Shown: positions 1,568-58,015, counted from the stretch's first letter. The stretch is DNA of 64,000 nt from an uncultured Clostridia bacterium (GCA_944383385.1 CALWPI010000001.1:10170-74169); one strand, 5' to 3'. A program made the numbers and translations. Notes: generated by a model from the letters alone, not told the origin.

Positions 1568-3733
1568 ATGAATGTTATTGAAGCCTTAATCACGTTTTTT
1601 AAGCAAATGGGCGAAAAATCTTGGGAGTATCAATTGTATGCTGCTGCTGGCATTTTGGTGCTCTTGTTACTTATCAGTCTCATTAGGTCTAACAGTTCTT
1701 ACGAAGTGAGATTGTTAAGGTCTGTTAATAGATTAAATAGGTTCTTTGCGAAGAATCCTAATGTTACAGCAGATAACTTGGTCGAACTAAACAATATGAT
1801 GAAAAGTGTTCCTAGTACGCTTCGTTATTGTTGGCAAGAATATTTGCTAAATCGTGACAAATTGCCAAGCGAATATATGAGTGCAAGAGAATGTGTTGAC
1901 CAACCTAGCAAAACTAGTAGTTATATGAACGCAACTAGTCATCTAAAATTATTCACAGTGGTTTCTAGTTTGCTATTATCACTTTTGAGTTTTGGTGCAG
2001 TTGCAGCAAAGGGGACAAGCACATTTGAGATTATGATTTCTGGCATTACTGTTCCTGCACTGCTTCTTGTATTTGGGTTGTTGTTTGTTGCCTTCATGGA
2101 GTCTAGACATACTGCCTTGATTGCTGATTTGTACTATTCTTATCATGAGTTTGAAAGAAATATAAACAAAGCATGTGGCACTTTGCCAGAATATATTGAT
2201 TATGAAATTCTCTTTACTAAGAAAGAAATCAAGCAAGGCATACCAGTCCTTCAAGAATATTTGGAAAAAATGGCTCTTCTCGAACAAAAGAAAAAGGAAG
2301 AAGAGGCATATACTTCATACGAATATGAACAATATGATTTTGAAAAATTGGGAGTTGACAATTCCTTACTTCTTGACCGTGCAATGCTTGAAAGCGAAAA
2401 ATATATTAATGTCAAAAGAAATCTAACTGACCGTATAAAAGCAAAAGAAGAAGAAAAAGCAAATTATCAAAAACAATTTGATGAAGTCACAAGAGAGTAT
2501 GAGAAAAAGACTCAAACAAGTAAGGAAACACTCAATCAGTTGTCAGAGCAAATGAGTAATACAACTGTCAAAATTGAGGCAAATTTCTTACGAAACAAAT
2601 ATGATACAGAACATCAAAAATTGCAACAATTGACTCGTGACTACGAAATGGCTCAATCACGTTTCCAACAAGAACAAGACCAATTCCAAGCAGAGATTGA
2701 TAGATACAATCAAGATATTGCAAAGAGAAAGGCAGCCGTTGAAGAGGCAATGATTGCAGAGTGCAAAAATTATGTCAACAAAGTTTACGGCAAGGTGACA
2801 GAAACCGTCGTTAGAGAGACAGAACCAGTCATGAAAGAACTTGAAGACAAAAAGATTGCACTAGAAGAAACTGTTGCAAAACTAGAAACAGATGTCGCAG
2901 ATAAGACTGCACAACAAGCACAAGCGCAAGAAAAACTTGAAACTCTTGAAAAAGAATATCAAACAAAAGTCGCAGAAATTGAAGGACTCAAACAAGTACG
3001 TGAATATTTCACATCATCTGAATTTATTAGTGCTGTCAAAGCAGGTAGAAAAGAAAAGGGTGAAGTTGTTGTCGATAGTAGTGCGAATAGTATGTCTGTT
3101 GAAGATAATGAAAAACTAATTGCTGCCATGAAACAACACGAAGAACTTGTACTAGAAAACGAAAAATTGAAGACAATGAATAATGAACTCAGCGAAGCAA
3201 ATGAAAAATTGTCAAATAGAAGTAGAGAGTTGTCTACCGAAATCAATAGTATGTATAAGACACAAAGTGAGTTGCAAGAAGAAAACAACAAGCTACAAAA
3301 AGAATATGCAAGCCTGTCGGAATCAATTTCTGACACAATTTCTGCATTAGCAGAAGGACAAGAAAAATTGGTTGCTATTACCGAGGCGCAAGTCGAAGCA
3401 GAAAATAAGGCTAAAACAACTGCTAAAAAGAGCACTGCAACCAAGAGTACAAAAACTAATAAGACGCCAAACACAGAAGTAAAAGAAGAACTAAAAGATA
3501 ATGCTATGAATGCGTACAACGAAGTTGATTCATTGAAAAAGTCATTGTCAAAACTCAAAAACACTGTTGATAAAGTAAAAGCGAATACATCAAGTCCTTT
3601 GACAGTTACAAGAAAAGCACGTGTCAAAGTGCAAACAAAAGCAAGCGCGCGTGAAAATCAAAATGAAGAAATTGACAAGAAACTAAAAAACATCGTGGCA
3701 AACAAAAACGGCGTTGATACAGAAAATAAATAA
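1568..3733 (+). CDS. Membrane protein of unknown function: three N-terminal TM helices, about 540 aa of coiled coil, and a K/T-rich tail
   Basis: GGGGAG SD before ATG 1568. Hydrophobic segments are AAAGILVLLLLISLI, LFTVVSSLLLSLLSFGAVAA and ITVPALLLVFGLLFVAFM. A long E/K/Q-rich heptad-like sequence follows, then AKTTAKKSTATKSTKTNKT near the C-terminus. An intrinsic terminator lies downstream. Confidence 0.7.
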   Translation: MNVIEALITFFKQMGEKSWEYQLYAAAGILVLLLLISLIRSNSSYEVRLLRSVNRLNRFFAKNPNVTADNLVELNNMMKSVPSTLRYCWQEYLLNRDKLPSEYMSARECVDQPSKTSSYMNATSHLKLFTVVSSLLLSLLSFGAVAAKGTSTFEIMISGITVPALLLVFGLLFVAFMESRHTALIADLYYSYHEFERNINKACGTLPEYIDYEILFTKKEIKQGIPVLQEYLEKMALLEQKKKEEEAYTSYEYEQYDFEKLGVDNSLLLDRAMLESEKYINVKRNLTDRIKAKEEEKANYQKQFDEVTREYEKKTQTSKETLNQLSEQMSNTTVKIEANFLRNKYDTEHQKLQQLTRDYEMAQSRFQQEQDQFQAEIDRYNQDIAKRKAAVEEAMIAECKNYVNKVYGKVTETVVRETEPVMKELEDKKIALEETVAKLETDVADKTAQQAQAQEKLETLEKEYQTKVAEIEGLKQVREYFTSSEFISAVKAGRKEKGEVVVDSSANSMSVEDNEKLIAAMKQHEELVLENEKLKTMNNELSEANEKLSNRSRELSTEINSMYKTQSELQEENNKLQKEYASLSESISDTISALAEGQEKLVAITEAQVEAENKAKTTAKKSTATKSTKTNKTPNTEVKEELKDNAMNAYNEVDSLKKSLSKLKNTVDKVKANTSSPLTVTRKARVKVQTKASARENQNEEIDKKLKNIVANKNGVDTENK

Positions 3734-10748: not shown

Positions 10749-11135
10749 ATGGCTAAAAGAGTAAGAGAAAAAACTGCAAATAGACAAGCAAACAAAGACA
10801 CCCGTCCTAAAGCAACTGCAATGTATGTTAGAATGGGTTCTAGCAAAGCAAAGAGAATTCTTGACACAATTCGTGGAAAGAAATATTTAGAAGCTGTCGC
10901 TATTGTTGAAAATAGCACAAGTAGCAATGCTGATGCAGTACTAAAAGTACTAAATAGTGCAGCAGCAAACGCAGAACACAATCTTGGTATGAACAAAGAC
11001 AATTTGTTTGTAGCAGAATGTTATGCAAATCAAGGTCCATCTTTCAAAAGAGCAATCTTTAGAGCAAAAGGTGGAGTTGACACAATTATTAAAAGGACTT
11101 GTCACATCACAATTATTCTTGATGTGGTCAAATAA
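10749..11135 (+). CDS. rplV: 50S ribosomal protein L22 (short basic N-terminal extension)
   Basis: SSKAKRILDTIRGK ... core uL22 sequence; operon order. Confidence 0.95.
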   Translation: MAKRVREKTANRQANKDTRPKATAMYVRMGSSKAKRILDTIRGKKYLEAVAIVENSTSSNADAVLKVLNSAAANAEHNLGMNKDNLFVAECYANQGPSFKRAIFRAKGGVDTIIKRTCHITIILDVVK

Positions 11136-13145: not shown

Positions 13146-13661
13146 ATGAAATTACATGTTAGAAAAGGCGATACAGTTGTTGTTATTGCTGGTAAAGACA
13201 AAGGCAAAACAGGTAAAGTTCTTACTGCTATTCCAAGTGATAATGCTGTTGTGGTCGAGGGAGTTAATATCATTTCTCGTCACAAGAAACCTAGAAATGC
13301 ACAAGACAAAGGTGGCATTATGAAAGCAGAGGGCAAGATTAGTGCAAGCAATGTACAAATCATCTGTCCAGTCTGTGGAAAAGCAACAAGAGTTGCAAAT
13401 ACCATTATTGACAGCAAGAAAACTCGTACTTGTAAAAAATGTGGTGCAAGTTTGGACGTAGCAACTAAAAAGGCTACAAAGAAAACTGCTACAAAAACCG
13501 TAAAAACAGAAAAAGCAGAAAAGACAGAAAAACCTGCAAAAACAACAGCAAAGACAACTACAAAGAAGACTGCTGTCAAAGATACAACAAAAACAAAAAA
13601 AGCAGCTACAAAAACAACAAGTGTAGCAAAATCAACTAGGAGGGTAGCAAGCAATGGCTAA
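13146..13661 (+). CDS. rplX: 50S ribosomal protein L24 (Cys4 zinc-ribbon form) with an approximately 67-aa K/T/A-rich C-terminal extension
   Basis: KOW motif [18 protein letters not shown] and ribbon CPVCG...CKKCG, then [36 protein letters not shown]. The ORF overlaps the rplE start by 8 nt. Confidence 0.9.
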
Positions 13662-15746: not shown

Positions 15747-16307
15747 ATGCAAAATACTGAAAATAGAAAACCTGAGAATAAAAAAGCAGAAAATAGAAAA
15801 CCAAGATTCGAAAAAAGACCAGCAAAAGTTGATGATGGTCTTGATAAGAAACTTGTAGAAGTCAACCGTGTTACAAAGGTTGTTAAAGGTGGTCGTACAA
15901 TGAGATTTGCTGCTCTTGTCGTTGTTGGTGATAGACATGGCAAGATTGGTATGGGAACAGGTAAGGCTGCAGAAGTACCAAGCGCAATCGAAAAGGCTAC
16001 ACAAGCTGCAAAGAAAAATATGATTACTGTCGCTCTTGATGGACAAACAATTCCACACGACATTATTGGTCGTTACGGCAAAAGTAGTGTCAAACTACTT
16101 CCATCAACAGAAGGTTCAGGAGTCATTGCAGGAGGTTCTGTCCGTCCTGTTGTTGAACTTTGCGGAATCAAAGATATAACAGCAAAAGTGTATGGTTCTA
16201 GAAGCAAAATCAATTGCGTAAGAGCAACTTTTGATGGATTATCAAAACTACAAACTGCTGAAACAATCGCAAAATTGCGTGGAAAAACAGTAGAGGAAAT
16301 TAGATAA
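15747..16307 (+). CDS. rpsE: 30S ribosomal protein S5 (about 15-aa repeat-containing N-terminal extension)
   Basis: [23 protein letters not shown] core sequence. The N-terminus is [15 protein letters not shown]. Confidence 0.95.
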
Positions 16308-16317
16308 GGGGTGCATT

Positions 16318-16752
16318 ATGGCAGAAACAAAGAAAACAACAAAAACAACTGCAACTTCTAAAAATACTAGCACCAAAGCAACTGCAACAAAGACAACAAA
16401 GTCAACAGCTGCAAAATCAACAACTGCTAAAAAGACAACAGCAAAGGCAGTTGCACCAAAAGCAGTAGAAAATACTGCTACTAAAACTGTTGCAAAAGCA
16501 ACAACTACCAAAAAAGCAACAACAGTTGCTCCAAAGGAAAGCGTTGCTCCTGCAAAAGCAAAGGCTGAACCTAAGAAGACAATTCGTGTTACTCTAATCA
16601 AGAGTACTATTGGTTTCAACAAGAATCAAGCCAAAGTTGTAAGGTCACTAGGACTAAATAAATTACATTCTACTAACGTAATTGCTGACAATGCATGTAC
16701 TCGTGGTATGATTGCAAAAATCAGTCATTTGCTAAAAGTAGAAGAGATGTAG
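16318..16752 (+). CDS. rpmD: 50S ribosomal protein L30 fused to an approximately 86-aa K/T/A-rich N-terminal extension
   Basis: Only the last ~58 aa (KTIRVTLIKSTIGFNKNQAKVVRSLGL...) are canonical uL30. An AAGGGGTG SD precedes ATG 16318, and there is no ATG/GTG/TTG near the canonical N-terminus. Confidence 0.88.
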   Translation: MAETKKTTKTTATSKNTSTKATATKTTKSTAAKSTTAKKTTAKAVAPKAVENTATKTVAKATTTKKATTVAPKESVAPAKAKAEPKKTIRVTLIKSTIGFNKNQAKVVRSLGLNKLHSTNVIADNACTRGMIAKISHLLKVEEM

Positions 16753-16761
16753 GAGAATAAT

Positions 16762-17208
16762 ATGAAATTACATGAATTAACTCCAGCAAAGAACAGCAAG
16801 CGTCCTGCTAAAAGACTTGGCAGAGGCATTGGCTCTGGTCTTGGCAAAACAAGTGGTAAAGGTATGAAAGGTCAAAACGCTCGTAGTGGTGGTGGCGTTC
16901 GTATCGGTTTTGAGGGAGGACAAATGCCTCTTGACCGTAGACTACCAAAAAGAGGTTTTAACAATTACAATTTTAGAAAAGAATATAACGTAGTAAATGT
17001 AGGTGATCTTAGCATATTCAACAATAACACTGTTGTTACAGTTGAACTACTAAAAGAGAAAAATATGATAAGCAAGATTGCTCCATATGGACTAAAAGTG
17101 CTAGGAAACGGCACATTAGATAAAACTCTAACAGTAAAGGCTGCTAAGTTCTCTGACTCTGCTATCAAGAAGATAAATGAGGCTGGTGGCAAAGTAGAGG
17201 TGCTATAA
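16762..17208 (+). CDS. rplO: 50S ribosomal protein L15
   Basis: [34 protein letters not shown]. Confidence 0.96.
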
Positions 17209-19943: not shown

Positions 19944-20207
19944 ATGGAGTATAAAGCAGGTGATATTGTGATATCAGTAGCAGGTCATGATGCTGGTAGA
20001 CACTATGTTGTGGTAAATAAAACTACGAGTAGGGTATTGCTTTGTGACGGACGATATAGTAAAATATCTCATAGTAAAGCAAAAAATCCAAAACATATTA
20101 GATTTGTGTATCATAACGAACAAATAGAAAAATATATCGCAAACAATCAATTATATGATTGTCACATTAGAAATGCTTTATCTAATGTATCACATTTAGG
20201 AGGATAA
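19944..20207 (+). CDS. KOW-domain small RNA-binding protein, the gene conserved between map and infA in Clostridia-type operons
   Basis: YKAGDIVISVAGHDAGRHYVVV is KOW-like; the position between map and infA agrees. Confidence 0.6.
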   Translation: MEYKAGDIVISVAGHDAGRHYVVVNKTTSRVLLCDGRYSKISHSKAKNPKHIRFVYHNEQIEKYIANNQLYDCHIRNALSNVSHLGG

Positions 20208-23725: not shown

Positions 23726-23755
23726 AATGCTTGTTACATTAATGCAACAAGCATT
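23726..23755 (+). promoter_or_regulatory. Perfect 10-bp inverted repeat (candidate operator or 5'-UTR hairpin) upstream of the lipoprotein gene
   Basis: aatgcttgtt - 10 nt - aacaagcatt. It lies just downstream of a TTGTAA-18 nt-TATTAT promoter-like sequence (23688-23717). Confidence 0.5.
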
Positions 23756-23783
23756 ACTAATTTTTATACTACAAAGGACAAAT

Positions 23784-26700
23784 ATGATAAAAAGAGTTTT
23801 AGGTGTTGTTGTAACCTTAATCTTATCATTTTTCTTATTTGCTTGTGATGAAGTGAATAATGATGAAACGTTTTCATTATCTTTTGAAAATGACAATGTT
23901 ATTGTAGACTTGAATACAAACTATGATTTAGATGCTTTGAATAATATTATAATAAGTTCTGGTTATTCCAATTATATATTAAATTATAGCGTATCCAATA
24001 CAAATATTGCTGAAATTATTGATAATACCTTTTATCCAAAAGCAGTCGGTAGAGTAGATGTCACAGTAAATTGCGATTTTCAAGGCGAAATGTACGAAGA
24101 TATATGTCATGTAGAAATACAAGATAATTCAATCAATAATTGTTACTTTGAACAAAAATCATTAGATGTAAATGTTTCTAACATGACAGTAGATGACACT
24201 ATTTCAATATATAATCGATTTGTTATTGAAAGCGACAAAGACAAACACACAATACAAACGGTATATAAAAATGATAATGGTGAGTTTTTATATGATAATG
24301 ATTATGTTTCATACAATTATGATACGGGTGAAATAAGGTTAATAAAAATTGATAAAAACATTACTCAAATTGAGATAGGTGTATATGTGTACACTTCTTT
24401 TGATGAACACGAATTTTATTCATTTGTGCTAAAATTTGAATATGATGTATATTCGACTATGTTGGGCGTTTCACATACGGAAATTCATAGTAAAATAAAT
24501 GAGCCACAAACATTCAAGATTTTGTTTGATAAGGGAACAACAATGTTGCCAAGTATTAGTTTAGACGACAACATATCTTATAAACTACTTGAAACTGGTA
24601 ATGATTATCAAACTTATGAAATCATATCTAGTATTAGTGGTGAATATACAATAAGTGTTGACATACCAAGTAAAAACAATCTAAAACAAACAATCAAATA
24701 TTTTGTACAAGATAAGGCAATGCTCAATAATTTGTCAATAAATTATAATGAAGCAATATTTACTAATCAAAAATATATTTTATCTTTTGACTCAAATATT
24801 GATTTGGATACATCTAAAATAACTATAAAAGATTATTGGACATTTGATGACAACGCAATATCTAGTAACATTGGTACATTTGTGAGTAAGAATGATTTGT
24901 CATATTCATACTCAATAAGTTGTTCAAATGCAGGTAGTCATAAAATAGTTGTTGAATATTTGGATGAGTATGGAAACTATTCTAATGCTATATCATTAGA
25001 AATAGAATTTGAAGTTTATGAACTTGCGACAAACATCAATACACAAATTTATAATCAATCTAATACACTTGTAGACACGCAAGAAATTACTTTGACGCTA
25101 ATTGATAACACAAGAGAAGAAAATATTGAACTTGCAACAGCAGACAATCTAAACACAAGTTGTTATGTTGTTGCTCAAAGTGATGTTGCTCATCCTTTTG
25201 GAAATATTACTTATAGTCAAGTAGGGCAAAGTATTAGCGTAAGTAGTATTGACAACAAATATGTTGTAGAACCAATCAGTGTTGGGACAAGCACAATAAC
25301 TTTTATGATAAACAATGTTGTTAAAACTATAACAATCAATGTCGATATGAGCAAATATACAAATGTTCATCTTGACAAACAAGAATATGAATTATTACCA
25401 AATAGTTCACAAACAATAGTTGTGGAGTATTTACCACAATATGCCTATGACAAATCAAGTAGTATTTACATTGAAGATACATCAATTGCAGTTTTAGAAG
25501 AAAATATATTGCATTATGTATCAAGTGGTAATACAAATATTATATTTGAAAATAGAGTAGTTGCTGCGATAAATTGTGTGGCAATTATTGATGATGTAGT
25601 ATTTGACAAAGGTAATCAAAGTATTGAAGCAATACCAGGTAAACAAATAGAGATAAATTGTAGATTTTTCTGTCAAGGCAATGCAGTTGTTGTGCCAATT
25701 GATATAGTGTCTAATGGGGTTGTAATAAGTACGTCAAAATATCTTGATAACATTTTCCAATTGATATTCTATGTGTCCAGTCAAGAAACGTCTTATATCA
25801 CATTAGTCAATAAAGATACAAATAGTGACATAATCACAATAGATATTGTCACAAAACCCGAAATAATTACAAATCTTGATGTGACATATGAAGATGTGTT
25901 GATATATCAAGAAGGACTTATTTTTGAACCACAAGTGACTGTTACTTCAAACTATGGCGTAGTCGACAGCAGTCGAGTTACAATGACGGAAAAGAACGGC
26001 AAATGCACAATAAATGATTTGCAAGCAAAGATTGAAGATGTGGGCATTTATAACTTTGTGTTTACTATTGATGATTTTATAAAAGAAATTGAGATAATGG
26101 TCATTCCACAAGATATAGAACAAAATGCGATTGTAAGAACAAGTGCAGAATTTGTGTATGCACTTGAAAATAATTTGCCAGTGTATCTAGCGAACGATAT
26201 TATCTTGGACAACGAAAATGTGATAACTAGTTCATACTCAAACACTATTTCTAGTTTGGGTAGTACTCTATGTACTATTACATTAAATTCAACTCTTATT
26301 GAAACATTACAAAACGAAGCAAAGATAAGTAATGTCAACATTTTGTTGCCAAATACTATTGATGTACAAGGGTATATAGCAAAAAACAATTTTGGTATAA
26401 TTGAAAATATTAATATCACAAATGAAGCAGTCGACTTGTCAAATGACGCAACTCTAATTTGTTGTAACAACTATGGAACAATATCAGGAATTTCTACAAA
26501 ACTTGATATACAAGCGTACAATTTTGATTTTGCAACTATTTGCTATATGAACCAAGGATTGATTAAAAAATGTACTTTGGACTTGAATATATCAGGCTCG
26601 TCCAATATTTCTGGTGTCACATATATGAGTGACATTTCAAATAAGGAAATCTTCCCAACAATTGACGATATGGTTATTGATATTGTAATAAATTATAGTG

Positions 26701-26987
26701 GCAATGATTCCAATTATAGTGCATGTGGCATACTTTGTTCTGCTGGTGGGAGAGTGTCGAGTAGTACAAGCCACACAATATTGTCCAATATTACTTTGAA
26801 TTTTTCCTACAATTCCAGCAATGTATCAAATATATATGTTGTAGCAAAGACAATGAGTTCTTCTCATGAAATGCACGATTGTAATATATTTGTAAATGAG
26901 AGAGATAATGTACTAAATATTATCCAAACATTAAAATATTTGTCTTCTTCATATCAGACAGACAATAAACTTACATTTTTACAATAA
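23784..26987 (+). CDS. Large surface lipoprotein (1067 aa) with Big_2-like Ig repeats and a GLUG/beta-helix-like C-terminal module
   Basis: The track ORF starts at 23727, but ATG 23784 gives the lipoprotein signal MIKRVLGVVVTLILSFFLFA|C. Big_2-like signatures include VSNTNIAEIIDNTFYPKAVGRVDVTV, IDNKYVVEPISVGTSTITF and IEDTSIAVLEENILHYVSSGNTNIIF. The C-terminus reads IVRTSAEFVYALENNLPVYLANDIIL ... IAKNNFGIIENINIT ... CCNNYGTISG ... ICYMNQGLIKKC. Confidence 0.75.
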   Translation: MIKRVLGVVVTLILSFFLFACDEVNNDETFSLSFENDNVIVDLNTNYDLDALNNIIISSGYSNYILNYSVSNTNIAEIIDNTFYPKAVGRVDVTVNCDFQGEMYEDICHVEIQDNSINNCYFEQKSLDVNVSNMTVDDTISIYNRFVIESDKDKHTIQTVYKNDNGEFLYDNDYVSYNYDTGEIRLIKIDKNITQIEIGVYVYTSFDEHEFYSFVLKFEYDVYSTMLGVSHTEIHSKINEPQTFKILFDKGTTMLPSISLDDNISYKLLETGNDYQTYEIISSISGEYTISVDIPSKNNLKQTIKYFVQDKAMLNNLSINYNEAIFTNQKYILSFDSNIDLDTSKITIKDYWTFDDNAISSNIGTFVSKNDLSYSYSISCSNAGSHKIVVEYLDEYGNYSNAISLEIEFEVYELATNINTQIYNQSNTLVDTQEITLTLIDNTREENIELATADNLNTSCYVVAQSDVAHPFGNITYSQVGQSISVSSIDNKYVVEPISVGTSTITFMINNVVKTITINVDMSKYTNVHLDKQEYELLPNSSQTIVVEYLPQYAYDKSSSIYIEDTSIAVLEENILHYVSSGNTNIIFENRVVAAINCVAIIDDVVFDKGNQSIEAIPGKQIEINCRFFCQGNAVVVPIDIVSNGVVISTSKYLDNIFQLIFYVSSQETSYITLVNKDTNSDIITIDIVTKPEIITNLDVTYEDVLIYQEGLIFEPQVTVTSNYGVVDSSRVTMTEKNGKCTINDLQAKIEDVGIYNFVFTIDDFIKEIEIMVIPQDIEQNAIVRTSAEFVYALENNLPVYLANDIILDNENVITSSYSNTISSLGSTLCTITLNSTLIETLQNEAKISNVNILLPNTIDVQGYIAKNNFGIIENINITNEAVDLSNDATLICCNNYGTISGISTKLDIQAYNFDFATICYMNQGLIKKCTLDLNISGSSNISGVTYMSDISNKEIFPTIDDMVIDIVINYSGNDSNYSACGILCSAGGRVSSSTSHTILSNITLNFSYNSSNVSNIYVVAKTMSSSHEMHDCNIFVNERDNVLNIIQTLKYLSSSYQTDNKLTFLQ

Positions 26988-27145: not shown

Positions 27146-30100
27146 ATGGGAAAAATTTTTAAGGTATTAGGATATGTCTTTTTAGGGTTATTCATACTCG
27201 CACTTGGAGTAGTTGGGTTTCTCTATTTTAGTGGGGCATTCAATGATAATAAGATTGAATTGGACACTATTGCTTTTGAAATTGACGCAGACAATATGGA
27301 AAACATTGAGTCAATGCTTATTGGTGGGCAAGAGACTTTGATTGTCACAGACGATATTCAAATGACGATAGGTTACACTCCATCAAATGCGACAAGCAAA
27401 ACTATCAATTTGAGAGTAAAAGCAGGACAAGATTTTATAAGTGTTCCAAGTCAAGTCATTGCAGGAGAACCATTTACTATACATATTGATAAAGAAAATG
27501 AAAATTATGGTGGAACAGTCATCATATCTGCCGCCGATGTTAAAGGACAAACAAAGGTAGACAAAGACTTGATATTTGTTGTTGACCGTCCAGTAGAAGA
27601 TTTGACATTATTCAATTTTGCAAATGAGGTTGGTGTGAGTGATAGTGGACCAATAATTGCTTTTTCAAAAGAATTGTTGCCATTTCAATTAGAGAGCACA
27701 CCACTCAATGCACTCAATCCAAACTTGGCATCTAGTGAATTTGATACAAGCAAGTTTTTCAAAAATATCAAAGTTGAGTCACAAGACGCCTCAATAGTTG
27801 AAGTGGTAAAAAATGAAACAAATCCAACAGAAATAAATATTGCTAATAATAGTGTTTTACTCAATTATTATTTGCGTACTGTCAATAAAGGTACGGCAGA
27901 TGTTGTCGCAACAATGTTCCCAACATATATAATGGATGCTGACTATACTGCTACGAATTTTGAAAAATTTTTGGCAAGCGACCCACAATACATAATGTTT
28001 AGTACAATTGCAAACGATTGTGCAAAGTTTGTGACCAAATACAAAGATTATATTTTGAGTATTGAAGAACAAATTTATATGCCTTCTTTGGGTAAGTCAA
28101 TGAATGGGGAAGAACTCATCAATGAATTGACCAATAATGGAACGGTAGAAATATCTTTTACAACAGACAACCGTGGGGCAGACGTGTTCCAAGATGTATT
28201 ACAATTTATGCAAATAAAAGCGCAATACAGTGTGTCCGTTGTCATGGGAGAAGTAGATTCTATTTCCGTTGACACAAATAGCATTGATTGGATACTACAC
28301 AAAGATAATTCTGCACAACCATATACAATTGATTCTTTGGTAAGCACTTTTGGACTGACTATCAATCCAGAAAATGACAATAATAACCTTGATTCATTGC
28401 TATCAAGCATCAAAATAAATGCATTACTTGTAGATACGACTAATCACACATTTACATTTGAAAATTATGAAGACGACGCAACACTACAATCAATTATTGA
28501 TTTGTTAAATAATCCAGAAACAAATAGGTCAACCGGTATTGAGGGAAGAAGTAGTTTGTTCCCAGACTTTAAGGTAACTAATGACCCAGAAAATTATTTC
28601 ATAGACGGATATATGCATTATGAAAAGGCTGAATTTGTAGGCAACCATAGTGAGATACTTACAAATGGCATCTTTGGTGTCAAAGAAGAAATGCGTGGAG
28701 AAGAAAAAGTGTGGGTCATGACCTCATACAACCAAATTCCAGACGGAATGGAATTGTATTTACACTTCTCACTCGAAACAATAATGGCACATGAAGACCA
28801 AAATATCAATGTCATATATGAAACCATTGTTAAGGTAAATATATCTACCAATACTATTCCAGTTGATTCAAACATTTTGATACAAGGCTCAATACCTAGC
28901 GTACTTGTTACAAACGAAAGTGGTGTGTATTATAATGGCGTTATGGCCTATAATACTTACTCATCCGACATAGATTATGCAACACTATCAACTAGCGAAG
29001 GTATATCCGAATTTTCATATACAACTATGAGATATTTGGTCAAACAAAGCGAAGTCCAAAAAATTGAGACAAATGGAGAAACCCCTTGTATTGATGTAGT
29101 AAGAGACGGTCAAGGCAATATTGTTGCACACAGATTGAGCGACGGCGAGATATATTATGAAGTAAACAATAGTCGTAATGGCGTCCTAAATTTGAGAGCA
29201 ACAAACATTTCTCCATACGAAGTAGAACCAAGCAAAGTATATACAAATGCACATATATATTCTGTTATTATAAAAACTGACAGAGAAGGCAATCCAATCT
29301 ATGAAGAAGACGGTTCGTATATTGTCATTGCTAAAAAGATGTCCAATGATACTTTTGTTGTTCGAAGTTTTATTGATAATTTGTATTATTATTCTGCCAT
29401 CACAACACAAGAAGGACAAACAGACAAAACAACTTATGTTTTGAGAAATTACAATATTCCAGGGGACAGATTGGTCAATTATCCAATGGGAACAGGTGAT
29501 GACGTTACAAATGCACTTGTTTTACTAAATGATACCACACATACTGCAACATTATTTGACAGCGACCAAAGTAGTGGTGACCTAAATTATGATGAGATTG
29601 TGGCATATGTTGAGGCAAATCAAGGTAGTGTAGTCATAACGATAGACAAAAACGTTAATCCTATCATTAATGAAGAAATGAATTTTATAGTTCTCAACTA
29701 TATTATTGATTCTAATGGTAATATGTATTTGACTGATGACAACATGAGAGAAACTGAGGTTGTCAAATATAAGAGTGCACTTGATGATGAATATCCATAC
29801 CTTACATTCCAACCAGGTGTGGGAGAAGTCAGTCAAGAAGACATTGGTTCATATGTCCAAACAATTGTGTCAAAAGAAACAAGTGAAACGGGGAATATCA
29901 AATCATTTATCAGTCTAAAAGTCATTGCACTTCAAGACGACCAAATCGATATTAGATGTGTTGGCACAACAAATAATGTAGAAGATAGTTTGTTTATGTA
30001 TCCATTCTATATTGATTATGACAAGAGTGACACTGCACAAAATCTATTTGGATTCCAACATGCGCAAGCAACAGAAGAAGAGTATTACACATATGCATAT

Positions 30101-33100
30101 AGTGACAACTATGTCAGTGGAAATTTAGGCGAAGGCATTCAAAATATGCTAAAACTTCAAGCAAATAGTAATGGTCAAAATATTATTTGGCTTGTAAAAG
30201 ATAGCGCTGTGGATACAACAAATCTCACAAGTTCTATGGACTTTATTATATATGGACAAGATACAGATAGCACATATTATGGTCCTATACTATATCAATT
30301 AGACACATCAAAGGTAGATATTTCTCAACAAGGAAATGTTGAAAATTATTTACAAAATTTTGCACAAAGCACAGTTAGTGAATGGCAGATTAGTTATTAT
30401 GTCTCACAAACGGATGATATTGCTGATTTGAATAGTCTGGCATGGCAATCAACTTCGGTTGAGAATAACCCATACCTTACAATATCAAAAGATGTCAACC
30501 AAAATTATCATATGAATATTTTGCAAGGCACTCAACATGGCGTGTATATCAAACTGACAGTTACACTTTATAACTATGAACTGCCAAATGGCGTGACAAG
30601 CGATTATACATTTGATGGCATTAGTTATCAAATTGCAAAGAGATTCACTACATACATTGTCTTGTATCAAGACGAACCAGTAATCACACTGTATAGTCGT
30701 TTTGACGGAGAAGGTGATGGGGTTTTGAATGGTGGTACAGCTGATGAAGGCGAGTATCGCAATGTTACAGCAGGAGATACAGTGTCTCTTGTGGGTAGCC
30801 AAAACGAAAGTGATTATATTGTAGTAACCTTGTCCAACAAATCAATTATTTCTTCTGCCTATATGAACATAAATCTTGCTGATAGGTCAAAGATGATATT
30901 CTTAGCATACTATGGGGCAGGTAATAATGACAACCCAACCAGGACTTATGAAATAGACGGTACAAAACTTTTGAACAAGTTGGAACTAGAAATATTTGAC
31001 TCTGGCATTGATTCATCTGCCACCTTTACTGTAAGTGTTGCAGGCAAAACATCAATATACTATTTATCAATTACTAAAAACGTCAATATAACTATAAACG
31101 AGATGTCAGCAAATACAACAGGAAATTACAATGTTGAACAAGATAACAATGATTATTATGTTCTAAATGTCGAAGATACTGGGACAAAATCCACCCCAGT
31201 AAGATACGCTTTGAGTGAAATATTCTCAATGACAAAAATAAACGACGGGCAAAATGTTGATATTACGTTTGGCTTTGTCGACCAAGAAGATAGTGCAAAT
31301 GATTATTACAAAATACATACACTAAACGGTATACAATACTTGTATATTGGCAGAGTATTCAACACAATGACTTTTGATATAAATATTTCTTATAAATTGT
31401 CTAGTGAAGACACAGTCACGAGCACATATTATAAGACTATAAGGGTCAAGGTCAATCCAACAATTGCTGTAAGCATTGAAGGAGACTACAATAGTTCAAA
31501 TCCTTTGGATGTAGTGACCGGCGAAAATTATAATATTTACGAAAATGATACATATTATATTCACGGCACATATAACAACGCAGAAATGGACGTTGCAACC
31601 TTACTAAATTATGTAAATGTCAGTGTTGACAGAAATAGTATCAGTGCAGAAGATTTGGTTGCACTTGGTGGACTAAATATGTCCAGTGACAAAAAATCGA
31701 TTACATCAACATTTACAATCAAAAATGTCAACAATGTAAGATTTATTATTCAACTAGCACAAGCAACTGTTTCTATAAACGCTGATAGTATTAGTTTGAG
31801 TGCAAATTCTTATATCATGACAGATATGTCAATGTACTTTAATTTCAAACCAAATGTATCTTTTGTCGCAACGAACGGACAAGATAATAATAGTCAAGAA
31901 AATCCATACATTTTGCAAGATACTCAAATTGCAAGTACGGGCACACAAGGTGAGTTTGTATTGTTTGGAGAAGAAAATGATTTGATAAAATTTGTTGCAA
32001 CATATGGTGGACAACAAACTGATATTACCTTAAATGTAATTTCTTCAATTAGTTTAAGCAAAAAAGTGCTAAACGAAGACGGTTTGACATATAGTTGGGT
32101 AGCACTTGAAGACGGATATATTCAAGTTGTAGTAGACGACAACAAAGTCGTTATAAACAAATTGACTAGCGTAAATCAAGATATAGATATTAGAATCAAT
32201 TTTGAAAATCAATTTGGTGTAAATGCATATTATTATGTCACACTAAAAAGTGATGTGTTAATTAGAGCGCATTATCCAATTCTAGCAAATGGCGAAAATG
32301 TGGCAGTTGGTACAAGCATTGATTTGAACCAAGGCTATGCGCTATCCAACAATAGATTAGAAATCTATTTTAGTGACGGCACAACTCCAATTACTTATGC
32401 CTTTGACAAAACTTATCAACTATTTGCAGACCAAACACTTGCAAATACTATTGATACAAACGTTGCTGAAATATCTGCACAAGGCAAATTGTACGTAAAA
32501 CAAAGCATTAGTGATATTTATATTAAGGTGACATTGTCTTGTGGTTCTTATGCTATATATCATATTATTGTTGTGCCAGAAGGATTTAGTAGTGGTATTT
32601 CAAACACTACTCAAATCGTTAAGGCAAATCACGAATATACACTTGATGAATTGCTTGGCAATGCAAAATATGCTGCACTAAAAACTGCTGATGGCAAAGA
32701 AATAATAAGCCAAAGCACTTATACATTTGAAGAAACATATTCAGCAACCAAATACGAAGTCCAATTCTATGTCTACAATGATGATAGTTTGCAAAGCGAA
32801 GGGGAGAAGATTTATACATTCCAAGTAGAAAGGAATATAACAATCGTATCAAATACTGATTATAGCGAAATTGCTGCAAACAATGAATATCAATTGTATT
32901 ATACTAATGAAAGTGGCGAAAACTATATTTTGGCATTGACCAAAGATGACGGAACAAACGAGTATTTAGATGCATCAATGTTTACATATTCAACAAACAA
33001 TGAAAACATTGTTATCGCAGGAAATACTATAAAGTATAATGGCAATGTAAATAGCAATCAAAAAGTAACCATTACAGTAGAATATGAAGATTATATTATT

Positions 33101-34384
33101 GGGACAGTCAATGTTACAATTGTGCCAAATATCAAAAATTTGATAAAAGAAGACCTTTACAACTATACAGCACTTGCTAGTTATAATGTTATAAGTCCAG
33201 CCAGTGGTACAGGTACAATTTTGGTTAGTGAGTATAGTTCACCAACTAATTATATTGGTGAAGATATTGATGGAACACTTACTTACTCTATTGATAATTT
33301 ACCACAAGGAGTATCAATTAGTGGAGATGGTAATATTACATATCCAATAGTCAACAAAACAATCTCATTTGTTGTCACAGCAACAATTACTTGGAGAGAC
33401 GTTTCATATAGCGAAAAAGTGACAATATATGTTCAAAATAACCTTGACACAAATACTATCAAGACACCAACTATTAGTGTTGATGCTGGACAAGTGATAC
33501 CACTTGATGTTACTAGAACAGGAAACACCATTTCATTGGAAGGCAATGCATTATTTAGCCTAAGAAATGAAGGGGAGACAAACATTGTTTTAAGATTTGA
33601 TGAAATTGAAACAAGTGATTATAGTATAGTTAAAGATAGTGATGGAACATATAGTTTGTATGTCTACAATTCAAATAATACTAATGCAATTAAAATTAGT
33701 TACTATATTGATTTTATTGGAACAACAAGTGTTGATGAATGTTACAAAGACAACCTGACGTACTTCTATATTCAATTGAATACTGCAAGTGTTGTTGATG
33801 AAATTGCAATTAAAGACGGCAACGATAATGCAATTACGCTAGATACAAATGCTATACTACTAAATGACATTCTAAATATTGGTGATAATAATTCTTCAAT
33901 TTGGTATCATAGTGTTTATGCAAGTGACTCAAATGGTAATACTGACGGACACAAGATTGTTCAAAATGGCAACGAAACATATCTAGTATTTGCTTGTACA
34001 ACGGAAGAACAAGAGGTCGATATTAGATTGTATCCATATAGTGGAGCGACAAACTTTGTTACTATTACATTTACCGTTCCAGCATCTAATGCATTAGAAA
34101 ATGTTAATATTGACCTACAATATACCGGCAGTCCAATTGTACACGATTTAGAAAATGATTTTGTATTTATGGACAGTACAGGAACAACAGAATTTGACAA
34201 GTCAATATTTGATTATACTATTGAAAATGTTGCACCAGTAGGACAGATAACAGATTCTAACTTGAACGGAAGTATTCTAACTATTGACACATTGACGGCG
34301 ACAACTACGCTTGTTATAAATGTGACAGATGGTATAAACACATTTAGAATAATTATCAATATTACAGTAGCAACTACTGAATGA
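27146..34384 (+). CDS. Giant surface protein (2412 aa) with a single N-terminal membrane anchor and many Ig-like units; function unknown
   Basis: An AGGAG SD precedes ATG 27146. The N-terminal hydrophobic segment is VLGYVFLGLFILALGVVGFLYF. The protein is N/T/Y/I/D-rich, with recurring Ig-domain-end strands such as VTITVEYEDYIIGTVNVTIVPN, FVVTATITWRDVSYSEKVTIYVQNN, ATFTVSVAGKTSIYYLSITKNVNITI and TTLVINVTDGINTFRIIINITVA. I found no LPXTG or SLH motif. Confidence 0.8.
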   Translation: MGKIFKVLGYVFLGLFILALGVVGFLYFSGAFNDNKIELDTIAFEIDADNMENIESMLIGGQETLIVTDDIQMTIGYTPSNATSKTINLRVKAGQDFISVPSQVIAGEPFTIHIDKENENYGGTVIISAADVKGQTKVDKDLIFVVDRPVEDLTLFNFANEVGVSDSGPIIAFSKELLPFQLESTPLNALNPNLASSEFDTSKFFKNIKVESQDASIVEVVKNETNPTEINIANNSVLLNYYLRTVNKGTADVVATMFPTYIMDADYTATNFEKFLASDPQYIMFSTIANDCAKFVTKYKDYILSIEEQIYMPSLGKSMNGEELINELTNNGTVEISFTTDNRGADVFQDVLQFMQIKAQYSVSVVMGEVDSISVDTNSIDWILHKDNSAQPYTIDSLVSTFGLTINPENDNNNLDSLLSSIKINALLVDTTNHTFTFENYEDDATLQSIIDLLNNPETNRSTGIEGRSSLFPDFKVTNDPENYFIDGYMHYEKAEFVGNHSEILTNGIFGVKEEMRGEEKVWVMTSYNQIPDGMELYLHFSLETIMAHEDQNINVIYETIVKVNISTNTIPVDSNILIQGSIPSVLVTNESGVYYNGVMAYNTYSSDIDYATLSTSEGISEFSYTTMRYLVKQSEVQKIETNGETPCIDVVRDGQGNIVAHRLSDGEIYYEVNNSRNGVLNLRATNISPYEVEPSKVYTNAHIYSVIIKTDREGNPIYEEDGSYIVIAKKMSNDTFVVRSFIDNLYYYSAITTQEGQTDKTTYVLRNYNIPGDRLVNYPMGTGDDVTNALVLLNDTTHTATLFDSDQSSGDLNYDEIVAYVEANQGSVVITIDKNVNPIINEEMNFIVLNYIIDSNGNMYLTDDNMRETEVVKYKSALDDEYPYLTFQPGVGEVSQEDIGSYVQTIVSKETSETGNIKSFISLKVIALQDDQIDIRCVGTTNNVEDSLFMYPFYIDYDKSDTAQNLFGFQHAQATEEEYYTYAYSDNYVSGNLGEGIQNMLKLQANSNGQNIIWLVKDSAVDTTNLTSSMDFIIYGQDTDSTYYGPILYQLDTSKVDISQQGNVENYLQNFAQSTVSEWQISYYVSQTDDIADLNSLAWQSTSVENNPYLTISKDVNQNYHMNILQGTQHGVYIKLTVTLYNYELPNGVTSDYTFDGISYQIAKRFTTYIVLYQDEPVITLYSRFDGEGDGVLNGGTADEGEYRNVTAGDTVSLVGSQNESDYIVVTLSNKSIISSAYMNINLADRSKMIFLAYYGAGNNDNPTRTYEIDGTKLLNKLELEIFDSGIDSSATFTVSVAGKTSIYYLSITKNVNITINEMSANTTGNYNVEQDNNDYYVLNVEDTGTKSTPVRYALSEIFSMTKINDGQNVDITFGFVDQEDSANDYYKIHTLNGIQYLYIGRVFNTMTFDINISYKLSSEDTVTSTYYKTIRVKVNPTIAVSIEGDYNSSNPLDVVTGENYNIYENDTYYIHGTYNNAEMDVATLLNYVNVSVDRNSISAEDLVALGGLNMSSDKKSITSTFTIKNVNNVRFIIQLAQATVSINADSISLSANSYIMTDMSMYFNFKPNVSFVATNGQDNNSQENPYILQDTQIASTGTQGEFVLFGEENDLIKFVATYGGQQTDITLNVISSISLSKKVLNEDGLTYSWVALEDGYIQVVVDDNKVVINKLTSVNQDIDIRINFENQFGVNAYYYVTLKSDVLIRAHYPILANGENVAVGTSIDLNQGYALSNNRLEIYFSDGTTPITYAFDKTYQLFADQTLANTIDTNVAEISAQGKLYVKQSISDIYIKVTLSCGSYAIYHIIVVPEGFSSGISNTTQIVKANHEYTLDELLGNAKYAALKTADGKEIISQSTYTFEETYSATKYEVQFYVYNDDSLQSEGEKIYTFQVERNITIVSNTDYSEIAANNEYQLYYTNESGENYILALTKDDGTNEYLDASMFTYSTNNENIVIAGNTIKYNGNVNSNQKVTITVEYEDYIIGTVNVTIVPNIKNLIKEDLYNYTALASYNVISPASGTGTILVSEYSSPTNYIGEDIDGTLTYSIDNLPQGVSISGDGNITYPIVNKTISFVVTATITWRDVSYSEKVTIYVQNNLDTNTIKTPTISVDAGQVIPLDVTRTGNTISLEGNALFSLRNEGETNIVLRFDEIETSDYSIVKDSDGTYSLYVYNSNNTNAIKISYYIDFIGTTSVDECYKDNLTYFYIQLNTASVVDEIAIKDGNDNAITLDTNAILLNDILNIGDNNSSIWYHSVYASDSNGNTDGHKIVQNGNETYLVFACTTEEQEVDIRLYPYSGATNFVTITFTVPASNALENVNIDLQYTGSPIVHDLENDFVFMDSTGTTEFDKSIFDYTIENVAPVGQITDSNLNGSILTIDTLTATTTLVINVTDGINTFRIIINITVATTE

Positions 34385-45316: not shown

Positions 45317-45667
45317 GGGGGCGACTGGTTTCGACGGGTCAAGATAGTTTGGTTTAGCACGAGGTAGGCTCGACTACCATAAAACGGAAATTAAATTTAA
45401 TTGCAGATTACAATTCTGTACCAGTTGCTGCTTAATTTAGCGTAATGCAACTTGTCTACATTCTGGACCGACGACAGATTGTGGGCATTAGTTAGTCGGC
45501 ACCTGTTGTGTATGATTTCTATAATATGCAATGGATTTTATAGGACGAATATGTGTGAGTTTGTATGCACTGCAACATATATTTGAAAAATAAGTGTGTA
45601 CTAATCGTGTAGAAGGACTGAGTGATTCTTTTCTCGGACGCGGGTTCAATTCCCGCCGCTTCCACCA
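45317..45667 (+). ncRNA. ssrA: tmRNA (SsrA)
   Basis: The 5' end is GGGGGCGACTGGTTTCGACGGG. The 3' end is GGACGCGGGTTCAATTCCCGCCGCTTCCACCA. The tag ORF ends ...GCA GAT TAC AAT TCT GTA CCA GTT GCT GCT TAA (45403-45435), giving a likely tag of ADYNSVPVAA; the resume codon is uncertain. Confidence 0.92.
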
Positions 45668-57749: not shown

Positions 57750-58015
57750 CCGTACTAGGCGGGGAGCTAGTAGTGCCCTGTATCCGAAATCTACTATAGC
57801 GGAGCCGAATGCCTATTGAGGGTGGTTAGTCGGTAATATTTTGCATATAATGTTGTCGTTGAGTTCAAGGTCTTATGCAATAATCTGCTATGAAACATGT
57901 CAGGTTCGGAAGAAAGCAGCATTAAGTAGATTTGGTTATGTGATGTAAGGTAACTTTGAAGGAGATAATTATTATGTGCGAATATTGCTGGACACGCACG
58001 AGATAGGATGTACGG
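57750..58015 (+). ncRNA. ffs: Signal recognition particle RNA, large Bacillus type with Alu domain (scRNA)
   Basis: ggcggggagctagtagtgccctgtatcc matches the B. subtilis scRNA Alu region. catgtcaggttcggaagaaagcagcattaagt matches the domain IV core. The 5' ccgtac pairs with the 3' gtacgg, and a T-run follows. Confidence 0.9.

Follow-up and report, generated by a model that had tools for sequence, protein, structure and literature searches.

A lysine-, threonine- and alanine-rich N-terminal extension of ribosomal protein uL30 in a clade of uncultured gut Clostridia

Extensions of ribosomal proteins that exceed 20 amino acids (aa), most of which are predicted to be disordered, are common throughout bacteria according to Xue et al. 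(Nature 2022; PMC9534751). The authors found them on 11 ribosomal proteins of Mycoplasma pneumoniae; their functions are elusive, yet disrupting them can cost this bacterium fitness. In the case of uL30, Sharma et al. (Nat Commun 2023; PMC10618245) solved the ribosome of Borrelia burgdorferi and showed that a helical N-terminal extension of this protein fills the pocket of the mycobacterial bL37, which consists of H39-H42 and H89 of the 23S ribosomal RNA (rRNA) and of the 5S rRNA. Their Supplementary Fig. 7 tabulates a "long uL30" for many phyla, including low-complexity extensions rich in Lys, Ala and Pro (K/A/P) of up to ~75 aa in Alpha-, Gamma- and Zetaproteobacteria, Chloroflexi and Actinobacteria, and a Clostridial type with the motif PLVNGRYVVEKQLP (Coralococcus sp. 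CAG:1435). Here we describe the rpmD gene in a 64,000-nucleotide (nt) stretch of DNA from an uncultured Clostridia bacterium (GCA_944383385.1, CALWPI010000001.1:10170-74169; hereafter the window), the product of which carries 88 residues rich in lysine, threonine and alanine (K/T/A) before the uL30 domain. Such a tail is not novel in kind because long uL30 proteins and disordered ribosomal-protein extensions were already described. The Clostridial K/T/A type is absent from the lists in both papers, yet it is clearly the same kind of thing.

The 144-aa product scored above the curated cutoffs of two uL30 family models. The Pfam family Ribosomal_L30 (PF00327) matched residues 89-138 (E 1.9e-16, 60.1 bits against a cutoff of 23), and the NCBIfam equivalog TIGR01308 (rpmD_bact) matched residues 89-143 (65.9 bits against a cutoff of 44.65), while residues 1-86 searched alone against Pfam matched no family. 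Solved bacterial uL30 chains are 55-65 aa long (29 distinct sequences from the Protein Data Bank, PDB, were matched, with one engineered fusion as the exception), and in alignments residue 89 of the 144-aa protein falls opposite their residue 3-4. The PDB and family alignments therefore place the start of the domain at residue 89, which leaves an 88-aa extension before a domain of 56 aa. The protein thus departs in its architecture from the typical single-domain uL30 of 55-65 aa, with its membership of the domain family intact. A preliminary description of this DNA had reported a 144-aa rpmD open reading frame (ORF) with a long K/T/A-rich N-terminus before the canonical uL30; the sequence was found exactly as quoted there, with the domain now delimited to residues 89-143. 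The gene lies in the spc operon between those for uS5 (15747-16307) and uL15 (16762-17208), and this order was identical in all of the related loci.

Residues 1-88 comprise 26 threonines, 21 lysines, 20 alanines, five serines, five valines, four glutamates, four prolines, two asparagines and one methionine, and contain neither arginine nor any aromatic or large hydrophobic/aliphatic residue. Threonine is the commonest residue (30%), lysine makes up 24% and proline 5%, and the net charge amounts to +17, or +0.19 per residue. The underlying DNA is 49% A and 23% C and consists mostly of ACA, GCA, AAA, AAG and ACT codons; at 16325-16431, Tandem Repeats Finder detected weak tandem repeats of 9, 15 and 24 nt, all in frame. 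When folded as RNA, the segment 16300-16590 (291 nt) had a minimum free energy of -62.2 kcal/mol (z = -2.5 against dinucleotide shuffles) and formed short GCAAC/GUUGC hairpins that are made by the Ala/Thr/Val codons. An Rfam search of the same segment matched no family, and an RNA-level role of the tract was rejected, its fold being judged a by-product of these codons.

The AlphaFold2 model, which was based on an alignment of 62 sequences, gave residues 88-143 the uL30 fold at a confidence score (pLDDT) above 94, and residues 1-87 a pLDDT of 44-65 and no secondary structure. Low pLDDT combined with coil is the typical behaviour of intrinsically disordered regions, and the model thus predicts disorder for residues 1-87, the very property for which a check had been proposed. 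The extension resembles those of Xue et al. (PMC9534751) in being lineage-specific, in running well over 20 residues past an E. coli-type terminus (~85 extra residues in comparison with the solved uL30 chains) and in its predicted disorder, which is indicated by the low AlphaFold2 confidence, the coil and the absence of order-promoting residues. It differs from them in composition and clade and, at 88-133 aa, is longer than the protein that hosts it.

When the full protein was used as the query, 178 homologues were found; the homologue-wide figures for composition and for the N-terminal cap rest on the 120 matches listed, which are 79-183 aa long and nearly all of which start with MAETKKTT. 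Relatives were scanned in one genome per GTDB species with the conserved motif of the uL30 domain, which gave 80 loci. The extension was found in 17 species-level genomes (16 GTDB representatives and the window genome) that are labelled Clostridia, Christensenella or similar. In the nearest relatives, whose SecY is 56-71% identical to that of the window, the K/T/A extension measures 21-133 aa, and the relatives with such an extension come from the human and animal gut and have a GC content of 32-37%. Two relatives, L046 and L039, have a uL30 of normal length; of the 19 species-level genomes whose SecY is at least 56% identical to that of the window, 17 have the trait. An unbiased view came from an index-free search with the domain only, in which 125 of the best 150 representatives could be classified; the N-terminus was longer by 20 residues or more in 48 of the 125 and by 60 or more in 20 of them, and many of the extended representatives were K/T/A- or K/A/P-rich. 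The K/T/A extension is inherited within a clade of uncultured gut Clostridia with a low GC content, and this well-delimited and abundant clade can be added to the bacteria with an extended uL30. In three uL30 relatives, P0186 (155 aa), P0202 (135 aa) and P0210 (78 aa), a Lys/Ala-rich low-complexity tail is C-terminal, not N-terminal. One further protein, P0130 (1039 aa), matched residues 13-34 of the uL30 domain query with 18 separate stretches; it is highly repetitive (…VKIETTFSFIGFRNIFRSKKKYLEL… repeated) and is probably a repeat artefact, not a ribosomal protein.

The low-complexity long uL30 of Proteobacteria, Chloroflexi and Actinobacteria, also represented by P0111, shares with the window protein a Lys/Ala-rich extension, in this case of 30-75 aa, which often starts with MAE(E/T)K. 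However, these extensions are K/A/P-rich, while those of the window clade are of the K/T/A type (Pro 5%, Thr 23-30%) and reach 133 aa in one relative; this difference may track the G+C content of the genome. No similarity was detected between the K/A/P-type long uL30 of Rhodospirillales and the window extension, which argues for a probably independent origin. Another type of extension, found in Oscillospiraceae-like genomes, is likewise N-terminal on the uL30 of gut Clostridia and is accompanied by a lengthened uL24 and uS5, but it is only ~39 aa long and has a well-conserved motif (…PLY(I/V)NGRYVVEKQLP…KPY…) that is absent from the window uL30, and it is probably structured. It is the Clostridial motif type of PMC10618245 (Supplementary Fig. 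7), and we independently observed it (…KQPLYINGRYVVEKQLPAKPxKGxKPY…) in L029, L036, L047, L050, L052, L056, L060, L061 and L079 (at ~4000 in each locus), as well as in L025, P0139, P0159 and P0255, all of which belong to Oscillospiraceae-like metagenome-assembled genomes. In L025 (187 aa), P0139 and P0255 (188 aa) the motif is combined with a low-complexity stretch, and the genomes with the motif extension encode a uS5 of 206-257 aa and a uL24 of 131-149 aa.

Within the limits of sequence analysis, translation of the extension from ATG 16318 is established. This codon, which lies 10 nt past the rpsE stop, follows a Shine-Dalgarno (SD) sequence (Table 1) that pairs with the anti-SD at -11.0 kcal/mol, an energy typical of the S10, spc and alpha operons, whose 26 other genes span -7.7 to -15.1 kcal/mol. 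The preliminary description had concluded that the extension must be translated, having seen no in-frame ATG, GTG or TTG near the canonical N-terminus. That observation holds as far as residue 131, upstream of which ATG 16318 is the only such codon; what had been overlooked is ATT 16582 (residue 89), the only near-cognate codon at the canonical N-terminus. The conclusion itself stands, since the SD-ATG adjoins rpsE, there is no usable internal start, and the frame and cap are conserved across the clade. In 17 of 17 genomes with the extension, an SD-ATG start is located 9-18 nt past the rpsE stop. Moreover, in all GTDB loci in which both genes could be read, the rpmD frame, whether extended or not, begins at most 28 nt after the rpsE stop, and a non-coding spacer between rpsE and rpmD was found in none of these loci.

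It is nevertheless conceivable that the mature uL30 is a short form, made by internal initiation at ATT 16582 or by proteolytic removal of the extension. A relative's uL30 is recorded by NCBI as a 56-aa protein with its start called at an Ile codon (ATA), Borrelia was suggested to make a shorter uL30 as well (PMC10618245), and a methionine is kept at the canonical start in 73 of the 120 matches listed. When all of the in-frame ATG, GTG, TTG and near-cognate codons were listed, ATT 16582 was the sole candidate, and it was rejected for want of an SD, its anti-SD duplex scoring -3.1 kcal/mol where positions inside genes average -1.7. Among the relatives, the canonical start position holds no conserved start codon of any kind; the codon there is ATT, ATA, GTT, CTT, TTA, TTG, GTA or ATC, with ATG in two of them, and is never preceded by an SD. 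Initiation there would also leave an untranslated gap of 274 nt in an operon in which the other gaps are ~10-20 nt, and the open frame, the cap and the SD are conserved in every genome. We therefore regard a mature short form as very improbable.

A fortuitous open frame is also improbable: the chance of 88 open codons is 6e-4 at the base composition of the window and 0.012 at the local composition, and the frame recurs in 17 species-level genomes. An assembly artefact, which together with a non-canonical internal start had been named as the finding that would speak against the extension, was excluded, since the identical 144-aa protein was found on at least 11 contigs; the five that are shown come from five different samples and two collections (Logan and ENA). 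On a 19-kb contig from another sample, which is 99.3% identical across the whole operon, the uL30 variant differs at two residues.

The comparison of extended and non-extended proteins indicates how the extension arose. Each residue of the cap, M1 A2 E3 T4 K5 K6 T7 T8, is kept in 100-120 of the 120 matches listed. Non-extended relatives begin with MAEAKKTLRIT or MAETNKVKITY, while the extended proteins begin with MAETKKT and resume with ...KKT-IRVTL, so that KKT occurs at both borders of the extension, and the spacer between rpsE and rpmD is unchanged between extended and non-extended relatives. The KKT borders and the constant spacer argue for an internal expansion behind the ancestral N-terminus instead of the recruitment of upstream DNA, which is consistent with the in-frame micro-repeats of 9, 15 and 24 nt. 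The tract changes very quickly. The two sister genomes L004 and L006 share 91-95% identity in the flanking proteins and 89% in the uL30 domain, whereas their extensions are only 48% identical, a value that is inflated by low complexity, and differ in length by 9 residues. Residues 1-85 searched alone against 5.8 billion proteins found nothing outside their own species, with the near-identical P0001 as the only match, and we accordingly rejected the idea that the extension is a conserved module carried by other proteins.

The composition, on the other hand, is maintained. Averaged over the 120 extensions, the fractions are K 0.26, T 0.23, A 0.22, E 0.09, V 0.08 and P 0.05, and Arg, Ile, Leu, Phe, Tyr, Trp, His and Cys are close to zero. 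The net charge per residue lies between +0.11 and +0.30 across these extensions and between +0.14 and +0.27 in 16 K/T/A genomes, despite a fivefold range of length in the latter, and conservation and basicity rise somewhat in the 10-15 residues next to the domain (K at -6/-7). The length and sequence of the extension turn over fast, while its composition stays steady at about +0.2 charges per residue.

The extension of uL30 belongs to a lineage-specific set of ribosomal-protein extensions, a view that is supported by the lengths of other proteins in the same genomes. Relatives with an extended uL30 have a uL24 of 157-189 aa, as compared with ~101-113 aa in the ordinary Clostridia sampled, and a uS5 of 173-201 aa (most 177-186), as compared with ~167-170 aa. 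The uL24 of every such relative has a zinc-ribbon insertion followed by a tail rich in K, T, A and E. In the window (13146-13661) this insertion is a CxxC...CxxC zinc ribbon at residues 74-101, upstream of the tail, and residues 74-116 give weak matches of the Lar/LysW zinc-ribbon type; the stop codon of rplX overlaps the start of rplE by 8 nt (ATG at 13654). In uS5, the extension includes a 15-nt tandem repeat of 3.1 copies at 15757-15802, which is a further in-frame slippage product in a ribosomal protein. We also considered bL17 (167 aa) as a carrier of a K/T/A tail and rejected it, its extra length being internal and not K/T/A-rich. The survey of lengths that had been suggested for the clade thus bears out a lineage-specific lengthening of uL24 and uS5 alongside the uL30 extensions, which is the part of the earlier idea of an H1-like decoration of the ribosome that stands.

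Three K/T/A-rich segments occur in the 64-kb window, namely the uL30 extension, the uL24 tail and a 25-residue patch (…KAKTTAKKSTATKSTKTNKTP…) at ~nt 3401-3475 inside the 721-aa ORF 1568-3733. The latter encodes a membrane protein with hydrophobic segments at its N-terminus and a long coiled-coil-like region rich in Glu, Lys and Gln, and has no Pfam match. The homology of these segments at the DNA level, which had been put forward for a check, found no backing in local alignments that were scored against 500 codon- or residue-shuffled controls each. For the uL24 tail and the uL30 extension, the observed score was reached by 80/500 codon shuffles of the DNA, i.e., there was no excess similarity, and by 157/500 residue shuffles of the protein. 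The patch in ORF 1568 was marginal against the uL30 extension (25/500 shuffles reached the score) and gave 329/500 against the uL24 tail. Judged by this test, the K/T/A segments are alike in composition only and are not homologous.

The reading that we favour with moderate confidence as a whole is that of a genuine translated tail with an electrostatic role. In-frame, slippage-driven expansion of AAA/ACA/GCA-type codons would have pushed the MAE-x-KK-T N-terminus and the domain apart, and the product would be an 88-residue intrinsically disordered polycationic tail with lysine as its sole basic residue. Since the N-terminus of uL30 opens to the pocket of 23S H39-H42/H89 and 5S rRNA (PMC10618245), the tail would exit the 50S subunit near the back of the central protuberance. 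There it may act as a flexible cation cloud that binds RNA weakly and non-specifically and neutralises rRNA phosphate, and such a cloud would stabilise or chaperone the subunit, help its assembly or space ribosomes apart. Selection would then act on bulk charge and solubility rather than on sequence.

Ribosomal-protein extensions that penetrate rRNA are typically furnished with Arg, Gly, His and aromatic residues. The uL30 extension has none of these, and the lack of Arg, Gly and aromatics together with its hypervariable length and sequence argues against a docked, rRNA-penetrating segment and favours a flexible cation cloud. In a docked arrangement, part of the tail would fold and fill the bL37 pocket (23S H39-H42/H89, 5S rRNA) near the peptidyl-transferase centre, a pocket that is occupied by the Borrelia extension and by the mycobacterial bL37 (PMC10618245). 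The two long uL30 proteins do share an N-terminal extension of ~40 or more residues, the normal position of rpmD, the same point of attachment to the domain and, presumably, a stable place in the 50S subunit, and the more conserved and basic domain-proximal residues would fit docking as well. However, the Borrelia extension forms a bent alpha-helix with many R, K and N residues and is ordered in its rRNA pocket, while that of the window is twice as long, K/T/A-rich, Arg-free and predicted to be disordered, with no helix in the AlphaFold2 model. BLASTP against the Borrelia uL30 sequence as printed in the supplement of PMC10618245 gave no alignment at E <= 100. What is common to both is thus an extension before the domain (88 residues in the window), without the alpha-helix or the sequence similarity, and docking of the Borrelia type seems to us a remote prospect.

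A neutral low-complexity expansion is the main rival of the electrostatic reading. The tail would then be translated and borne on the ribosome yet functionless; slippage in AAA/ACA/GCA codons would inflate an exposed terminus, and selection would merely remove harmful variants, i.e., hydrophobic, aggregation-prone or frame-breaking ones. The in-frame micro-repeats, the fast turnover of length (21 to 133 aa among relatives), the sequence that is unconserved beyond the cap, and the loss or original absence of the extension in L046 and L039 inside the clade would all follow from such a process, and the further K/T/A stretches, on uL24 and on an unrelated membrane protein, suggest that the whole genome tends towards such mutations. 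On the other side stands the persistence of the trait in 17/19 genomes at a SecY divergence down to 56% identity, as well as the narrow net charge per residue and the complete absence from the tail of arginine, which is used in the adjacent domain. Furthermore, just 3 K/T/A segments occur in 64 kb, 2 of them on ribosomal proteins, and disrupting comparable extensions affects the fitness of M. pneumoniae (PMC9534751). We consider neutral expansion a real possibility, albeit rather unlikely.

Several points weigh against the electrostatic reading. The function of the tail is purely inferred, and the hypervariable length, the slippage repeats and the relatives L046 and L039 without the extension fit a functionless expansion equally well. 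Slippage in A/C-rich codons in a genome of 34% GC, combined with the purging of hydrophobic residues, could by itself keep the composition constant. Among six contigs of the same species there are four substitutions, two synonymous and two non-synonymous, which are too few for a dN/dS estimate. Low AlphaFold2 confidence does not amount to proof of disorder on the ribosome. Finally, the internal methionines at the canonical start, many of which belong to matches of another subfamily, make a short isoform possible for those homologues.

Histone H1 and bacterial H1-like proteins with K/A/P tails consist of a lysine-rich, arginine-poor, disordered polycation on a small globular nucleic-acid-binding domain, and the C-terminal domain of H1 has about twice the charge density of the uL30 tail. 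The general layout of uL30 is the same. However, its tail is less charged (+0.19 per residue), has threonine in place of proline, sits on an rRNA-binding protein and shows no homology to H1; with K 24%, P 5% and T 30%, and with no [ST]P[KR][KR] (S/TPKK-type) motif found in a search of the extension, it falls outside the H1-like type, and the H1-likeness proposed earlier is reduced to a loose analogy. A moonlighting role, in which the tails of uL30 and uL24 bind DNA, the nucleoid or an anionic membrane, or cluster ribosomes, and in which phosphorylation of threonines might tune their charge, would draw on the K-rich, R-free, disordered composition, on the co-occurring uL24 tail at the tunnel exit or membrane-facing side and on the unusual 30% threonine. 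Against this, the tail has about half the charge density of H1 tails, S/TPKK motifs are missing, and the richness in threonine is simply explained by the ACA and ACT codons of a tract that is A/C-rich and prone to slippage, in a genome of 34% GC. We hold such moonlighting to be the least probable of the readings considered; even taken together, the short isoform, the docked tail and moonlighting account for a small part of our expectation.

Judging from composition alone, one could go further and see in the uL30 N-tail and the uL24 C-tail a selected, charge-tuned polyelectrolyte brush on the 50S subunit, lysine-only, threonine-rich and with ~+0.2 charges per residue, although we think this improbable. 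Phosphorylation of the many threonines by Ser/Thr kinases might switch its charge, and the brush may control the stability, spacing or hibernation of ribosomes or their association with the nucleoid or membrane. In that case, bacteria would have a counterpart of the regulated tails of histones or ribosomes.

The extension is easily missed in public annotation. In the NCBI records MCI5714324.1 and MDY5041644.1, the uL30 of a relative (L001 6001-6405) is given as a 56-aa protein (P0121) that begins MRVTLIRS... and is identical to residues 79-134 of a 134-aa SD-ATG ORF (P0058). The implied start is an ATA (Ile) codon, the counterpart of which in the rpmD of the window is ATT 16582. The selection of starts guided by family models seems to hide the extension, and surveys based on such records will consequently under-count extended ribosomal proteins. 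The clade also shows how such tails evolve, i.e., by in-frame growth behind an ancestral N-terminus, with composition and charge kept but not sequence, and with a similar tail co-occurring on uL24. If the tails are functional, it would offer a tractable case for studying the role of disordered ribosomal-protein extensions in bacteria.

Table 1. Coordinates of rpmD, its parts and the extensions of other ribosomal proteins in the window
Feature	Position	Strand	Basis or remarks
rpmD ORF (uL30)	16318-16752	+	144 aa
Shine-Dalgarno AAGGGGTG of rpmD	16306-16313	+	overlaps rpsE stop TAA 16305-16307; 4 nt before ATG
N-terminal cap MAETKKTT (codons 1-8), ancestral uL30 N-terminus with the expansion behind it	16318-16341	+	homologue conservation
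uL30 N-terminal extension, 88 codons, K/T/A-rich, Arg-free, predicted disordered	16318-16581	+	composition, repeats, AlphaFold2
Canonical uL30 globular domain (residues 89-144) and stop codon	16582-16752	+	Pfam PF00327, TIGR01308, PDB alignments, AlphaFold2
uL24 C-terminal tail, K/T/A/E-rich, ~residues 104-171 (68 residues)	13455-13661	+	Pfam L24 match ends at residue 102
uS5 N-terminal extension, ~31 residues, basic, N/K/R/E-rich	15747-15839	+	Pfam S5 N domain starts at residue 32
uL22 N-terminal extension, ~21 residues, basic	10749-10811	+	Pfam L22 domain starts at residue 22

Elsewhere in the window, two very large ORFs directly downstream of rplQ, 23727-26987 (1086 aa) and 27146-34384 (2412 aa), had no Pfam match at E <= 0.001. 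An 87-aa ORF at 19944-20207 between map and infA (MEYKAGDIVISVAGHDAGRHYVVV…) likewise had no Pfam match and was also called in the near-identical contig L084 (13627-13890). No rRNA or tRNA genes were found within the 64 kb. A tmRNA gene with the tag peptide ADYNSVPVAA is located at 45317-45667, and an RNA of the large bacterial signal recognition particle (SRP) type at 57750-58015.

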